From a virus: a stretch of 64,000 bases of DNA. Numbering within the stretch: the stretch's first letter is position 1; the number at the start of each line of letters is the position of its first letter. A program made the position numbers and the translations under genes. The notes under the pieces were generated by a model. The model was not told the DNA's origin, did no database searches, and saw nothing but the letters and a program-made list of their open reading frames with translations. Location of the stretch: positions 1 through 64,000 of the IMG/VR virus record IMGVR_UViG_3300047284_000202; one strand, written 5' to 3'. Positions 3,124 to 37,886 of the stretch are shown here, in pieces.

Positions 3124-5615
3124 TGGATTTTTATACAAACGTTGAATTGGTGGGGGATGATATTCTCTTTCGTGGTTATGAAGGTTCCGACCGAGTAACT
3201 TACAGAGAGAGTTTCTCTCCCACTCTTTTTGTACCTTCTAAAGTTGAAACTAAATTCAAAACTCTAGAGGGACAAACAGTAAAACCAATTAAATTTACCA
3301 GTCCAAGGGATGCCCGTGAGTTCATCAAGAAGTATGAAAACGTAGAGGGATTTGACGTTCATGGATATGATAGGTTTGTATATCAATTCATTGCAGATAA
3401 ATATCCAAAACAGGTTGACTATGAATTTCAAGCTCTTCAGATATACACTATCGATATTGAGGTTGCATCAGAAAATGGTTTCCCTGATGTAGAATCTGTT
3501 GCAGAAGAAATTCTTTGTATGACGATTAAGAATCTGAATACAAAGGAGATCAACACTTGGGCAACCAGAGAATTTGATGCACCTTCGGGAGTTAATGTTC
3601 ACATCTTCGATGGTGAAGAGGCAATGATGCGTCACTTCATTGAGTGGTGGGCAAAGAATACTCCCGATATTGTGACTGGATGGAACTGCAATCTGTACGA
3701 CATTCCGTATATCTGTCGTCGTGTTTCACGTATCCTTAGTGATAAGTGGGCAAAGTCTCTGTCCCCCTGGAATCGCATTAAGGAAAATGAGATCTTTATT
3801 AAGGGTCGTAAGCAACTTTCTTATACGATTCTTGGTGTTTCGATTCTAGACTATCTGGATCTCTACAAGAAGTTCACTTACACAAACCAGGAATCTTATC
3901 GTCTCGATCATATTGCTTTCGTTGAACTAGATCAACGTAAGTTGGATCACAGTGAGTTTGAGAACTTCAAGGCATTCTATACGTATGGGTGGCAGAAGTT
4001 TATTGAGTACAACATCTTCGACGTGGAACTTGTTGACCGTCTGGAAGACAAGATGAAACTCATCGAACTTGCTGTTACGATGGCATACGACGCAAAGGTA
4101 AACTTTGAGGATGTATATTCTCAGGTTCGTATGTGGGATACTCTAATCTTCAACTTCCTCAAGGAAGATAATCTTGTCGTTCCCCCTAAGAAAACTGGAG
4201 TCAATAAGGACGAAAAGTATGAAGGTGCTTATGTGAAAGAACCTATCCCTGGTCTGTATGACTGGGTGGTGTCCTTTGACTTGAACTCCCTGTACCCCCA
4301 CCTGATCATGCAGTACAACATCAGTCCTGAGACCCTGCAGGACCACAGGCACCCCTCTGCGACCGTAGATCGTCTGCTCAACCAGGAACTCGATCTGGGT
4401 GCCCTCAGGGGGGAGACGGTCTGCCCAAACGGTGCGATGTACACTACATCTGAACAGGGATTCCTCCCTAAGATGATGCAGAAAATTTATGATGAACGTA
4501 CAATCTACAAGAAATTGATGATTGAGGCAAAGAAAGAATATGAGGTGACCAAGAACAAAGATCTCACTAAAAAGATCTCAAAGTACAACAACATTCAGAT
4601 GGCACGTAAGATCCAACTTAACTCTGCCTATGGTGCCATTGGTAATCAATACTTCCGTTATTATAACTTGTTGAATGCTGAAGCAATTACTCTATCTGGT
4701 CAACTTTCTATTCGTTGGATCGAAAAGAAACTGAATCAATATTTGAATACACATCTCAAGACTGAAGATCATGACTATGTTATTGCTATCGATACTGATT
4801 CCATCTATCTGTGTTTGGATAATCTGGTTGAAACTATATTCAAGGGAAGAGAGAAAACTACTGAAAGCATTGTTTCGTTCCTTGATAAGGTCTGTAAAAT
4901 GGAACTTGAAAAATATATTGAAAGTTCTTACCAAGAATTGGCAAACTATGTAAATGCTTACGATCAGAAGATGTTCATGAAACGTGAGACTATTGCAGAC
5001 AAAGGAATCTGGACTGCAAAGAAACGTTATATTCTGAATGCTTGGGATATTGAGGGTGTTCGATTCTCAGAACCTAAACTCAAGATCATGGGAATCGAAG
5101 CAGTTAAATCTTCTACTCCAGCACCATGCCGTCAGAAGATTAAAGATGCTCTCAAGATCATCATGACCAAAACTGAAGATGATCTTATTAAGTTTATTGA
5201 GCAGTTCCGTAATGAGTTTAAAGAACTTCCATTGGATCAAATTGCATTTCCTAGGAGTGCTAATAACTTAACTAAGTTTTCTAGTTCGGTTACTATTTAC
5301 GGTAAGGGAACCCCAATGCATGTTCGTGGAGTCCTTCTATATAATTTTTACATCAAAAAGAATAAACTGACTCACAAATATCCTGTGATCCAGGACGGTG
5401 AGAAGATTAAATATCTACTTCTTCGTACACCAAATAAGATCAACGAGAATGTGATTGCATTCTTGCAGACGTTTCCTGATGAACTAGGACTTGACAAATC
5501 GGTAGATCGTGACTTACAATTTGAGAAAAGTTTCGTCGAACCACTGAAGATCATCCTTGATATCATCGGTTGGAAAACTGAAAAAGTTAACACACTAGAA
5601 TTTTTGTTTGGATAA
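3123..5615 (+). CDS. gp43: DNA polymerase, family B (T4 gp43)
   Basis: Exo DIEV; SFDLNSLYPHLI; KIQLNSAYG; DTDS motifs. Confidence 0.98.
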   Translation: MDFYTNVELVGDDILFRGYEGSDRVTYRESFSPTLFVPSKVETKFKTLEGQTVKPIKFTSPRDAREFIKKYENVEGFDVHGYDRFVYQFIADKYPKQVDYEFQALQIYTIDIEVASENGFPDVESVAEEILCMTIKNLNTKEINTWATREFDAPSGVNVHIFDGEEAMMRHFIEWWAKNTPDIVTGWNCNLYDIPYICRRVSRILSDKWAKSLSPWNRIKENEIFIKGRKQLSYTILGVSILDYLDLYKKFTYTNQESYRLDHIAFVELDQRKLDHSEFENFKAFYTYGWQKFIEYNIFDVELVDRLEDKMKLIELAVTMAYDAKVNFEDVYSQVRMWDTLIFNFLKEDNLVVPPKKTGVNKDEKYEGAYVKEPIPGLYDWVVSFDLNSLYPHLIMQYNISPETLQDHRHPSATVDRLLNQELDLGALRGETVCPNGAMYTTSEQGFLPKMMQKIYDERTIYKKLMIEAKKEYEVTKNKDLTKKISKYNNIQMARKIQLNSAYGAIGNQYFRYYNLLNAEAITLSGQLSIRWIEKKLNQYLNTHLKTEDHDYVIAIDTDSIYLCLDNLVETIFKGREKTTESIVSFLDKVCKMELEKYIESSYQELANYVNAYDQKMFMKRETIADKGIWTAKKRYILNAWDIEGVRFSEPKLKIMGIEAVKSSTPAPCRQKIKDALKIIMTKTEDDLIKFIEQFRNEFKELPLDQIAFPRSANNLTKFSSSVTIYGKGTPMHVRGVLLYNFYIKKNKLTHKYPVIQDGEKIKYLLLRTPNKINENVIAFLQTFPDELGLDKSVDRDLQFEKSFVEPLKIILDIIGWKTEKVNTLEFLFG
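5491..5520 (+). promoter_or_regulatory. Sigma70-type promoter inside the gp43 3' end, for uvsX
   Basis: TTGACA-18-TACAAT. Confidence 0.55.
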
Positions 5616-24397: not shown

Positions 24398-24832
24398 ATG
24401 GGTAGTTATGAAAATCCTTGGATGTTTAATTCAGAAGTTTTTGAATCGGATAACATTGAAGATTATTTTGGTTTTGTTTATCATATCTACTGCACTGCAA
24501 CTGGTAAGTCGTATATTGGTAGAAAGTATTTCTGGAGTTTCCGCACACCGAAGGGCAAATCTAGAAAGGTTAAATCAGAGTCTGATTGGAAAAATTATTA
24601 TGGATCATGTCCCGAACTCAAAACCGATGTTAAACTTTGGGGCAAAGCATCCTGCAACAGAACAATACTTAGCCTCCATAAAACAAAAGGACAGTGCAAC
24701 TTCGAAGAAACAAAACAACTCTTCTTGAATAATGTACTGACAGAGGCACTGGAGGATGGAAGTCCTGCCTACTACAATTCAAATATTCTCGGAAGATACA
24801 TGCGTAAAGATTACTTTGGGAAGGGGGCTTGA
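24398..24832 (+). CDS. GIY-YIG family nuclease-like protein
   Basis: GFVYHI...SYIGRK...YYGS...E...YYN. Confidence 0.75.
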   Translation: MGSYENPWMFNSEVFESDNIEDYFGFVYHIYCTATGKSYIGRKYFWSFRTPKGKSRKVKSESDWKNYYGSCPELKTDVKLWGKASCNRTILSLHKTKGQCNFEETKQLFLNNVLTEALEDGSPAYYNSNILGRYMRKDYFGKGA

Positions 24833-24858
24833 CAGGGCAGGCAGGGGTGCTATATAAT
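24829..24858 (+). promoter_or_regulatory. Sigma70-type promoter for the tRNA-Arg/ncRNA transcript
   Basis: TTGACA-18-TATAAT. Confidence 0.75.
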
Positions 24859-24884
24859 TACTAGGTAAGCAACGGAGACGACCG

Positions 24885-25043
24885 ATGACTGACAAAGAGA
24901 TTCAAGATTATTTCTACGATTCTCAAATTTATCAATCTACTGTTGATGAACTAGTCGATAAACTCCATGAACTTATCTCTCAGGGTGATTTCTGCAAAGC
25001 ACAATTGGTTGCTGAGACTATCCGAGAGTTGCAATTGGGATAG
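24885..25043 (+). CDS. 52-aa hypothetical protein
   Basis: GGAG RBS; MTDKEIQDYFY...; stop lies in the tRNA-Arg 5' end. Confidence 0.55.
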   Translation: MTDKEIQDYFYDSQIYQSTVDELVDKLHELISQGDFCKAQLVAETIRELQLG

Positions 25044-25110
25044 TAGCTCAGTGGAATAGAGCAACTGCCTTCTAAGCAGTCGGTCGATGGTTCGAATCCA
25101 TCCTATCTCG
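25037..25110 (+). tRNA. tRNA-Arg(TCT)
   Basis: Cloverleaf; ACTGC-ctTCTaa-GCAGT; GGTTCGAATCC. Confidence 0.93.
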
Positions 25111-25240
25111 TAGTCACGGAGAGACTTAAAAAGTACTGGTGGAGTCAATTTTGACCCTATTATGCCCGTCACGGATGGACGTTAACAGCACTGGTCGGGA
25201 ACCCCCCTACGGAGTTTCTAGTTTCTCTCAAAAACTGGTG
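25111..25240 (+). ncRNA. manA-like RNA, 5' part
   Basis: Two GTCACGGA..GAC..ACTGGT-hairpin modules, then an H-type pseudoknot ending TGGTG; follows a tRNA; family recognised from memory. Confidence 0.6.
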
Positions 25241-25276
25241 TATCCTATATAAATAAATATAGTTATATAGGATACA
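25239..25276 (+). promoter_or_regulatory. Perfect 14-bp hairpin containing a late promoter and the HNH gene RBS
   Basis: TGTATCCTATATAA/TTATATAGGATACA; TATAAATA at 25248-25255; ATG at 25277. Confidence 0.85.
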
Positions 25277-25711
25277 ATGGCAACTAGAGAACAAAAGTTA
25301 GAAGCAAAAAGACGCTACTATCAAAAAAATAAAAACAAACTAAACTCAGAATCAAGAGAACTCAATACTAGATTGAGATATGAAAAGAAAAACTTTATCA
25401 TAGAATCTCTTGGATCTAAGTGTTGTGAGTGTGGGATTACTGATTGTCTAGAAATAGATCATATCAATCCTGGATTAAAAAAAGATAGAAGATGTCTTTA
25501 TGTTTGTTCTTGGGACAGAATCAAAAGTGAAATGGACAACCTCCAACTTCTCTGTAGTGCATGTCACCATGAAAGATCTCAACTTCAAAAAGATGCTTCG
25601 TGGTTTTATTTTAAAAATCTTCCCCTAGAAGAACAAAATAAAATAATGAAGCAGTTTAAAGAGGGAGGTTCTAACTTGCCTTCCTGGTCCCCGCAAGATA
25701 AGGGACAATAA
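25277..25711 (+). CDS. HNH homing-type endonuclease
   Basis: CCECG...LEIDHINP...NLQLLCSACH. Confidence 0.9.
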   Translation: MATREQKLEAKRRYYQKNKNKLNSESRELNTRLRYEKKNFIIESLGSKCCECGITDCLEIDHINPGLKKDRRCLYVCSWDRIKSEMDNLQLLCSACHHERSQLQKDASWFYFKNLPLEEQNKIMKQFKEGGSNLPSWSPQDKGQ

Positions 25712-25788
25712 AAATTCTTGCTGGTGCGGATGGGACTCTCTCCCGCCTGGTTTCCAATTTCCAGTCAAAGAATTGGTGGCGAGCCTGG
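25687..25788 (+). ncRNA. manA-like RNA, 3' part
   Basis: Pseudoknot GTCCC/GGGAC with GCAAGA/TCTTGC; TGGTGCGGATGGGA..TCCCGCC; pseudoknot CTGG/CCAG with CCAATT/AATTGG; TGGCGAGCCTG. Confidence 0.65.
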
Positions 25789-25798
25789 AACTTAAGTT

Positions 25799-26242
25799 AT
25801 GGAATTCTCTATTGTTGGACAGTACTTGAATCAAAAACAAGCATTTTCTAACCCTGCTTTTTATGCCATGATTCGTGTCATATATAAACAGGTGGGAGAT
25901 AACAAACTTAAGTCCGAAAACTGGTACGAATATTTGTACCCCTCAGGGGAACCTTATAAACAGGAATATCATTCTTATGATATAATATCCCCTACAGAAG
26001 TTGATTTTCAATCCTATAATATGGACTGGGAACCAACCTGTAAATTTAAGTTCACATGGGATGGGAACTTCTGGGTTGCTGAACCATGTGGTGAGTGCGT
26101 AGTAAAGGATATAAAAATAAACAGTACGGTCAAGTTCAATGATCAGGTTTACATTTCCGAAGATGTAGGTTATGATCGAACAGGAAACGTAGTGTTTGGT
26201 CGAGTGGGAATGCCTTTCATTTTTGATAGGATTCCCATTTGA
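25799..26242 (+). CDS. cpeT: CpeT/CpcT-like phycobiliprotein lyase
   Basis: NQKQAFSNPAFYAMIRV...PYKQ...DVGYD.TGNVVFG...PFIFDR. Confidence 0.8.
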   Translation: MEFSIVGQYLNQKQAFSNPAFYAMIRVIYKQVGDNKLKSENWYEYLYPSGEPYKQEYHSYDIISPTEVDFQSYNMDWEPTCKFKFTWDGNFWVAEPCGECVVKDIKINSTVKFNDQVYISEDVGYDRTGNVVFGRVGMPFIFDRIPI

Positions 26243-26247
26243 TTCCT

Positions 26248-26327
26248 GCCCAAGTGGTGAAATTGGTATACACGCTTGACTTAGGATCAAGTGCTTCGGC
26301 GTGGAGGTTCGAGTCCTCTCTTGGGTA
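26248..26327 (+). tRNA. tRNA-Leu(TAG)
   Basis: CTTGA-ctTAGga-TCAAG; variable arm present. Confidence 0.92.
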
Positions 26328-26329
26328 TT

Positions 26330-26401
26330 ACTCTGGTAGTCTATTGGTAAGGACGGGTGGACAACACACATGGAAACTAGGTTCGATTCCTAGACAGAGG
26401 A
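26330..26401 (+). ncRNA. tRNA-like RNA with an aberrant anticodon arm
   Basis: Intact D and T arms; mismatched acceptor ends; anticodon loop lacks U33. Confidence 0.6.
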
Positions 26402-26508
26402 AATAAGGTAAGGAAAGTAAAAGGAGCATGGGAACCGTATGGAGATACCGCACCTGCCTTGTTAACACCCCTCAAGCCTATCAACGATGCTCAAACAGAG
26501 GGGTCACT

Positions 26509-26580
26509 GCGGATTTAATTCAGTGGTAGAATGGCTGCCTTCCAAGCAGTTCGTCAGGGGTTCGAATCCCCTAATCCGCT
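26509..26580 (+). tRNA. tRNA-Gly(TCC)
   Basis: GCTGC-ctTCCaa-GCAGT. Confidence 0.93.
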
Positions 26581-26625
26581 TGAGTTCTAAACTCTTATAA
26601 ATAAATTCATTAAAGGTCGAAAATC

Positions 26626-37637: not shown

Positions 37638-37886
37638 ATGTCAACACCTAACGTAACTGTAATTTATACCAAGAAAGGTTGTCCCTTTTGCGATAAGATT
37701 AAAGAGGTTTATAATCTCAAGGGGTGGAGTTATACTGAGTATGTTCTTGATGAACAATTCAATAGGGACCAATTCTATAATGAGTTCGGACCTGGTGCGA
37801 CATTCCCACAAGTCATTATTGATAATAAGAAGACTGGTGGAGCATCCGATACTATTCAATACTTTAAAAATAATGGTTTAGTCTGA
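37638..37886 (+). CDS. nrdC: Glutaredoxin
   Basis: YTKKGCPFC...TFPQV...GG. Confidence 0.92.
   Translation: MSTPNVTVIYTKKGCPFCDKIKEVYNLKGWSYTEYVLDEQFNRDQFYNEFGPGATFPQVIIDNKKTGGASDTIQYFKNNGLV

Follow-up and report, generated by a model that had tools for sequence, protein, structure and literature searches.

We analysed a 64,000-nucleotide (nt) stretch of viral DNA (hereafter the window), which comprises positions 1-64,000 of the 87-kilobase (kb) record IMGVR_UViG_3300047284_000202 and comes from a T4-like freshwater cyanophage. The locus of interest opens with a transfer RNA gene, tRNA-Arg, and directly behind it lie structured RNA modules, as an initial annotation made from the letters of the sequence had described (Table 1). 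Two of these modules, which we call X and Y, are followed by the first pseudoknot (P1) of the RNA motif wcaG, by a gene for a 144-amino-acid (aa) HNH endonuclease and, overlapping the 3' end of that gene, by a complete wcaG RNA whose first stem is a different pseudoknot, P1'. A CpeT-like gene starts 9 nt 3' of wcaG. We conclude that the HNH gene is probably a free-standing homing-endonuclease cassette that sits between P1 and the wcaG core, restores the RNA by means of P1' and is under late control of the T4 type.

The window was compared with loci fetched from uncultured viral contigs (labelled L001-L173) and with contigs from public freshwater runs (labelled X3, X15 and X16). Five HNH-less alleles (L124, L091, L052, L040 and the phage S-CREM1) were colinear with both flanks of the HNH unit, 25105-25240 and 25724-25800, and the sole block found in the window but in none of the five was 25241-25723, which is 483 nt long with a TG ambiguity and has CTGGTG at each side (25235-25240 and 25721-25726). 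Because these relatives are colinear with both flanks, we regard the HNH unit as an insertion. The initial annotation had pointed out the two CTGGTG copies and proposed this comparison of HNH-plus and HNH-minus alleles, and its limits for the insert, 25241-25726, agree with ours within 3 nt. The insertion point falls between canonical P1 (25211-25238) and the UGGUGCGGA linker of the wcaG core. In the empty alleles the homologue of 25211-25240 is the canonical wcaG P1, abutting GGUGCGGAUGGG, and the wcaG RNA scores 83-102.5 bits in L124, L091, L052 and L040 and 92.7 bits in S-CREM1. Gene order in S-CREM1 is that of the window (SegE-like GIY-YIG gene, small open reading frame (ORF), tRNA-Arg, wcaG, tRNA-Leu, abiF, tRNA-Gly) with HNH absent, and 25112-25200 matches the S-CREM1 stretch immediately upstream of its wcaG.

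Occupied and empty forms of the site were also recovered from the freshwater runs. One contig of run X16 joins 25238 to 25722, skipping 483 nt with 1 mismatch in 68 on the left side, and so represents an empty form of the site that has the P1 of the window. Runs X16 and X3 hold more empty alleles with other canonical P1 sequences between the flanks, run X3 also holds an occupied allele (25109-25751, 1 difference), and record 5 of run X15 is identical to the window over 25598-25747. Related genomes are thus polymorphic, at one fixed site, for the presence of the cassette. Nucleotide homology to L004-L008 is confined to the segment from 25240/25241 to 25787/25790, and the left contexts of these loci differ. 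In ten loci including the window, a P1-type hairpin 5' of the cassette is intact in six, with varying sequence, truncated in two and absent in two; where it is absent, module X directly abuts the cassette. The HNH gene lies outside any intron or intein, among conserved genes of the same orientation.

The RNA into which the gene reads was identified by a covariance scan with Rfam models, in which 25685-25790 matched wcaG at model positions 1-98 of 98 with 79.9 bits (cut-off 42). wcaG is a cyanophage RNA motif that often occurs next to light-related genes (Weinberg et al. 2010, PMC2864571). It consists of P1 and then a core made up of the UGGUGCGGA linker, P2 and P3, and the linkers UGGUGCGGA, GCCUGGUUUC and GUGGCGAG are all intact in the window. 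Directly 5' of the UGGUG linker, at the place of a canonical P1 with its GUUUC flank, the window has P1' without GUUUC. P1 and P3 are not drawn as pseudoknots in the structure line of the cmscan output. The flanks had initially been likened to another cyanophage motif, manA (RF01745), and here the annotation was mistaken: they are wcaG and two unnamed modules. manA gave no match at E ≤ 10 in 24700-26600 and none across the 87-kb record in a whole-record scan, in which 14 control genomes were likewise empty; cmscan scores the motif at 96.6 bits in S-CREM1. In that phage manA is present in a region syntenic to the window. The same annotation had seen no group I core, and the group I intron model (RF00028) indeed had no match at E ≤ 10 in 24700-26600, in a scan that detects the intron of L085 at 64.6 bits. 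The L085 intron (3892-4086) adjoins an abiF RNA in a tRNA region, and the contig also has a distant HNH gene upstream of wcaG.

P1' consists of two interleaved helices, S1 (25687-25691 with 25702-25706) and S2 (25693-25698 with 25716-25721). It is encoded by the last eight HNH codons (…SWSPQDKGQ*), the stop codon and 10 nt beyond, and the stop codon (25709-25711) sits in its A-rich loop. The helices of P3 are formed by 25747-25750 with 25761-25764 (S1) and by 25754-25759 with 25771-25776 (S2). Three H-type pseudoknots had been predicted at these places, the last HNH codons forming part of the second (overlap 25687-25711), and covariation bears the prediction out. On 15 P1'-type sequences, 97.1% of the cells in P1', P2 and P3 pair and in 12 of 26 pairs both partners change; none of 500 shuffles was as good, and slid controls reached at most 54.9% pairing. 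Compensatory pairs within P1' number 3/5 in S1 and 2/6, plus a wobble, in S2. Several of these changes alter residues in the HNH tail (S/C/R, G/A), and in L011 the change of a C to T, which leaves a wobble pair in the helix, makes an earlier stop and removes five tail codons. Because compensation changes the residues and L011 stops early, the HNH tail looks constrained as RNA and not as protein.

The other two pseudoknots covary as well. S1 of P3, which joins the four bases before UUU to four loop bases, occurs in six combinations over 116 distinct sequences (CUGG/CCAG, CAGG/CCUG, CCAG/CUGG, CCUG/CAGG, CUAG/CUAG and CGAG/CUCG). For canonical P1 we aligned 80 sequences, namely 79 of the 95 distinct canonical sequences and the window; 'GAG' before UUU pairs with loop CUC in 29 of 30 and 'GG' with UCC in 43 of 43. 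This class table is better evidence than the anchored-helix metric, which is weak for canonical P1 (mean 3.84 vs 3.62 for shuffled partners, standard deviation 0.084). In the window's remnant P1 both helices are intact.

P1' is found behind other genes too. The 47 nt at 25680-25726 recur, 89-96% identical, in L103 and L120, where they end an unrelated 187-aa ORF. By eye, this ORF has a GIY-YIG-like N-terminus (Y-x-Y...YIGKG), and its homologues are multi-copy in cyanophages, with up to six per genome and one annotated 'intron-associated endonuclease 1'. Profile searches left the GIY-YIG label unconfirmed, with a sub-threshold, irrelevant match in Pfam, nothing in NCBIfam or PDB and, in PHROGs, families without a name besides a weak match to 'restriction endonuclease II'. 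Because the label comes from an eye-read motif and one annotated homologue, we call the ORF only a putative nuclease. In L063, L094 and L107 it is a 2OG-Fe(II) oxygenase ORF that ends in a P1'-like fold, and further compensatory changes are seen there.

Table 1. Features of the HNH-wcaG locus, in window coordinates.
Feature	Position	Strand	Basis or remark
Sigma-70-type promoter, TTGACA-18-TATAAT, 12/12 letters	24829-24858	+	Precedes a 52-aa ORF, tRNA-Arg and the RNA array
tRNA-Arg (anticodon TCT)	25036-25111	+	ARAGORN and Rfam, 69.4 bits
Module X: AGUC/GACU 4-base-pair hairpin, A-rich stretch, CUGGUGG, GAGUC..GAC	25112-25157	+	Colinear with HNH-less alleles
Module Y: CGUC/GACG hairpin, A-rich stretch, CUGGUCGGG..CCCCCC	25167-25207	+	Colinear with HNH-less alleles
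Canonical wcaG P1 pseudoknot, S1 GGAG/CUCU, S2 CUAGUU/AACUGG, then UG of the UGGUG linker	25211-25240	+	
HNH cassette, window-specific 483-nt insertion	25241-25723 (equally 25239-25721, TG ambiguity)	+	Alignment with five empty alleles
13-base-pair control hairpin holding TATAAATA and the AGGA ribosome binding site	25240-25275	+	Fold and covariation
HNH endonuclease gene, 144 aa	25277-25711	+	PHROG, alignment of relatives, dN/dS
Complete wcaG RNA (RF01761), first stem P1'	25685-25790	+	79.9 bits, full model
Substitute pseudoknot P1', S1 GUCCC/GGGAC, S2 GCAAGA/UCUUGC	25687-25721	+	Covariation
wcaG P3 pseudoknot, S1 CUGG/CCAG, S2 CCAAUU/AAUUGG	25747-25776	+	Covariation
CpeT-like gene	25799-26242	+	Pfam CpeT 1.7e-09; PHROG 488 1.1e-28

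The HNH ORF lies between the first and second pseudoknots, as initially annotated, and its product matched PHROG HNH families at E 1e-15. The Pfam HNH score, 21.3 bits, is marginally under the cut-off of 21.4, and the nearest solved structure by family profile is that of a phage HNH endonuclease (PDB 5h0m, E 2.1e-4). A beta-beta-alpha-metal HNH motif is present, the N-terminal 45 residues are strongly basic, and C49, C50, C52, D61, H62, N88, C93, C96 and H97 (CxxC, DH, N, CxxCH) are invariant in nine aligned sequences. The median ratio of nonsynonymous to synonymous substitution rates (dN/dS) was 0.112 for 21 pairs of seven full-length genes over codons 1-134, with dS up to 1.06. Because dN/dS is low and the catalytic residues are invariant, the gene appears intact and functional, and these substitution patterns indicate that it has long been maintained, all while attached to wcaG. 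Among 50,697 records of isolate phages we found no HNH homologue above 40% identity (the best had 39.7%, and none came from a cyanophage); the HNH comparisons consequently rest wholly on uncultured contigs.

A hairpin (25240-25275, −15.9 kcal/mol, z −4.1) directly precedes the ATG of the gene. TATAAATA (25248-25255), a sequence of the T4 late-promoter type, falls in its 5' arm and loop, and AGGA (25269-25272) in its 3' arm, 4 nt before the ATG. Across ten loci 96.2% of cells pair, against at most 58.5% in slid controls, compensatory changes affect 4 of 13 pairs and ATAAATA never varies. TATAAATA occurs nine times in the window, eight of them on the + strand, where 3.65 would be expected. Early read-through transcripts probably start at the perfect sigma-70-type promoter upstream of tRNA-Arg, and a promoter/terminator scan found no terminator-like site between that promoter and the HNH gene. 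For T4 I-TevI, I-TevII, I-TevIII and segB and for mobE of phage Aeh1, early transcripts have been described to fold so that the ribosome binding site is hidden, and late transcripts of these genes to start inside the structure and to be translated (PMC2988022). By analogy, the same late control may apply to the cyanophage HNH gene.

The association of the gene with RNA modules extends through much of its family. A profile search gave 42 HNH loci, of which 28 were examined; L132-L140, which repeat L003-L011, and L163, L164, L166, L168 and L169, which are weak, 54-residue matches, were left out. All nine close relatives (viral contigs with HNH 79-95% identical) have a wcaG that overlaps the gene at its 3' end. 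When identity is 38-70% (L141-L156, n = 16), the stop codon lies in a module or no more than 5 nt from one in 15 of the 16 loci, L147 being the exception. The module at the stop is Y in 12, X in one, half of P1' with the core in one and the P3 module in one, and an Rfam wcaG lies downstream of HNH in 12/16. The twelve weaker HNH relatives (within L157-L173) had no module link. In L080, L142 and similar loci the HNH tail …DTDGL* is coded by the first hairpin of module Y, and the same tail closes phrog_481, a non-nuclease ORF, in L118 and L032. Because this tail also ends non-nuclease ORFs, we think that distant HNH genes insert just 5' of a module and read into a resident, RNA-constrained tail.

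At L080, L118, L032, L142-L156, L013 and other loci, the first hairpin of an X, Y or P1-type module contains the stop codon of the ORF upstream (tails …DTDGL* and …QLFLVS*). In L053 (1972-2310) an ORF for a mannose-6-phosphate isomerase-like cupin runs up to or into wcaG, as does the 2OG-Fe(II) oxygenase ORF of L063, L094 and L107.

We propose that, in an array X-Y-P1-core behind tRNA-Arg, the cassette entered precisely where the P1 pseudoknot meets the UGGUGCGGA linker. Early-promoter read-through transcripts would fold the hairpin and hide the ribosome binding site; transcripts from the embedded late promoter would be without the 5' arm, and HNH would be translated. P1', formed by the last codons, the stop codon and the 10 following bases, would then re-form a full wcaG at the core. 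The nuclease would cut HNH-less wcaG loci of co-infecting relatives, and repair would copy the cassette in, with the RNA modules as homology arms. Its target lies perhaps at the conserved DNA of CUGGU(G/C)G junctions; that there are several landing sites would then be understandable. Further ACTGGTSGR sites occur in the window at 37833, 38455, 56146 and 56293, and the three that we read (37833, 56146 and 56293) are ordinary coding sequence with no RNA module. The initial annotation had considered a homing nuclease that invades a non-coding RNA gene and carries its own pseudoknot. The invasion and the pseudoknot have been borne out, in that empty alleles join 25240 to about 25724 and P1' covaries; nuclease activity, the target, homing itself, late timing and the functional equivalence of P1' and P1 are what we infer.

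Several points weigh against this model. Preservation of wcaG is not strict: in L141 (1483-1911, HNH 70% identical) the P3 module directly follows the gene and P1' and P2 are lost, and in L148 (1465-1851), from a clade with a 128-aa HNH protein, the gene abuts only the 3' half of P1', with wcaG still at 73.1 bits. Because many of the fetched contigs are near-duplicates, the counts overstate independent events, and the independent HNH/module arrangements number perhaps about eight. wcaG RNAs of the P1' type score 55.7-82.1 bits in Rfam, compared with 83-104 bits for canonical ones, and P1' is without the conserved GUUUC flank. Since a P1'-like fold also stands behind a non-nuclease ORF, the cassette may have captured P1' rather than brought it. 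The late promoter is predicted from what is known of T4. The run data are assembled contigs, which speak for the existence of the two forms only and from which strand, RNA ends and transcription are not readable. The occupied allele retains the conserved CTGGTGCGGATGGG, although it would have to escape self-cleavage. Cleavage, the target site and biased inheritance are likewise steps that we infer.

HNH could instead be a resident nuclease, acting for example against host or competitor DNA, with ORFs shuffled between modules by ordinary recombination in a hypervariable region, the presence or absence of the gene a result of such shuffling and the shared 3' tail one of recombination at module borders. 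The region is indeed a mosaic in which unrelated ORFs (2OG oxygenase, mannose-6-phosphate isomerase-like protein, phrog_481, the 75-aa membrane protein described below and a 68-aa ORF) end in or next to modules, and purifying selection with dS of about 1 suits a useful gene as well as a homing one. We nevertheless consider this explanation unlikely. The position of the HNH family relative to the modules is fixed across different left contexts, the combination of late promoter and hairpin is typical of T4 homing endonuclease genes, and so patchy a distribution, with no close homologue among isolates and with occurrence in several freshwater runs beside empty alleles, is typical of selfish nucleases.

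If P1' were no working replacement, wcaG would be disabled in the occupied allele or would depend on long-range pairing with the old P1, and the Rfam match would reflect a coincidental spacing of hairpins. The missing GUUUC flank and the lower Rfam scores would fit this, as would the old P1 remnant that stays intact in 6/10 loci and the decay of P1' in L141 and L148. It is, however, hard to reconcile with the compensation of both P1' helices at the cost of amino-acid changes, with a core behind P1' that is 100% identical over 61 nt to the cores of HNH-less loci, with the retention of P1' behind a different gene or with a remnant P1 that is truncated or missing in 4/10 loci, and we judge the chance that P1' does not work to be small.

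A third possibility, raised in the initial annotation by reference to HEARO/IscB, is that HNH and the pseudoknot RNA are partners, the RNA guiding, activating or regulating HNH in the manner of the omega RNAs of IscB and TnpB, or controlling translation termination. It would account for a whole HNH family (38-95% identity) with its stop in or beside a module containing CUGGU(G/C)G, for the overlap of the RNA with the 3' end of the ORF and for the very basic N-terminal residues. The protein is only 144 aa long, with an HNH domain alone, and scores 18 bits against the NCBIfam model guided_IscB (cut-off 175), a match that covers only the HNH positions 177-242 of 314. At most of the sites sampled wcaG, X and Y occur without HNH, an HNH gene lying within 1.2 kb upstream of only 9 of 126 wcaG core sites, and non-nuclease ORFs end in the same modules. 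An unrelated ORF takes the place of HNH before P1', and L141 keeps HNH with most of wcaG lost. A partnership of this kind is thus very improbable. We give equally little credence to a use of the module RNA in cis or trans, as a cofactor that steers HNH to the DNA of the same module or as a ligand- or ribosome-sensing switch that times nuclease production; if this were true, the locus would be an RNA-assisted HNH system of a minimal kind, separate from IscB and TnpB.

The modules that precede the cassette are common in related phages. In the fetched loci L001-L131 we found 48 distinct copies of X and 74 of Y, and X/Y modules precede wcaG in many cyanophage contigs. Each opens with a 4-base-pair hairpin that covaries, as judged by eye (AGUC/GACU, AGAC/GUCU, CGUG/CACG, CAUG/CAUG); X ends in CUGGUGGAGUC..GAC and Y in CUGGUCGGG..CCC. 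Neither matched an Rfam family at E ≤ 10 in the scan of 24700-26600. Module Y often stands directly before the ATG of a gene for a 75-aa membrane protein (phrog_2318), with the ribosome binding site enclosed by GGGAG…CCCC. The positions of the RNA modules suggest that they act at gene junctions, and in the window the CpeT-like gene may be a target of wcaG action. The genes downstream of wcaG vary by locus, with a tRNA in S-CREM1 and L003.

Other RNAs and genes were noted around the locus. An abiF RNA (RF03085, 50.7 bits) lies at 26468-26504, just before tRNA-Gly and in the same order as in S-CREM1. A tRNA-like element at 26330-26401, 2 nt after tRNA-Leu, scores 28.1 bits, slightly below the Rfam cut-off of 29, and is 88-94% conserved in L001, L065, L089 and L033. 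A glutamine riboswitch (RF01739, 38.9 bits) is located at 415-461 on the − strand. The ORF at 24362-24832 matches Pfam SegE_GIY-YIG at 1.3e-51, and its homologues are labelled 'NAD synthetase' in many cyanophage records and in PHROG 447. Probably the label has spread from record to record by mistake and the gene is a second homing-type nuclease gene next to the tRNA cluster.

wcaG has been an orphan riboswitch candidate since 2010, and the locus offers handles for testing the function of the RNA as well as a naturally 'P1 swapped' form for relating its structure to function. The comparison also contributes, for this RNA, the behaviour of P1 and P3 as H-type pseudoknots, its position as the last unit of a longer module array and the stop codons of upstream genes that are routinely built into the modules. 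Among the papers that our literature search turned up for wcaG RNA we found none tying it to homing endonucleases, and a term search of the S-CREM1 paper (PMC9964418) gave zero occurrences of 'homing' and 'HNH'.

The RNA of the window resembles other members of RF01761 in matching the model over its full length and in being a cyanophage RNA beside a light-related gene, here the cpeT-like one. Unlike them, it has as its first stem a non-canonical pseudoknot lying partly in coding sequence, with the canonical P1 displaced 483 nt upstream, and modules outside the Rfam model precede it. manA (RF01745) is also a cyanophage RNA of tRNA clusters but is absent from the window and the record. IscB (HEARO) proteins consist of a RuvC domain split by HNH, measure about 400-500 aa and have their omega RNA encoded upstream. 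They and TnpB share with our locus a structured RNA that adjoins or overlaps the gene, and the HNH domain; the window's HNH protein is without RuvC and one-third the size, its RNA lies downstream of the gene and is widespread without the protein, and the IscB model stays far below its cut-off.

Selfish nucleases survive in essential genes by means of self-splicing introns, of inteins or of splitting a protein into two working pieces. Like I-TevI and other nucleases encoded in group I introns, the HNH gene would have invaded a conserved gene whose product is kept working, under the same control logic; unlike them, it has no match to a ribozyme core, and the RNA is restored by a duplicated structural element. 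T4 segB is a free-standing GIY-YIG homing endonuclease gene between tRNA genes (PMC2988022). The window's gene resembles it in encoding a nuclease, in being free-standing and in lying among tRNA and small-RNA genes of a phage, with a predicted late promoter, a hairpin that would hide the ribosome binding site and an expectation of intronless homing, and differs in being of the HNH type, in lying inside a structured RNA locus, in stopping within the RNA and in supplying a substitute element. mobE, from Aeromonas phage Aeh1, is like ours an HNH gene and lies within the gene for a ribonucleotide reductase (PMC2988022). In both cases an intronless HNH gene of the homing type splits a functional gene; for mobE a hairpin hides the ribosome binding site and the function of the host gene survives, as both would in our case. 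The host of mobE is a protein reassembled from two pieces, whereas that of the window's gene is an RNA whose lost part is replaced by the invader's copy. Because the invader encodes a spare copy of the displaced RNA element, splicing would not be needed, and the locus would represent a further solution, for an RNA gene, in which the invader lodges between two elements of the structure and carries the spare in its last codons.

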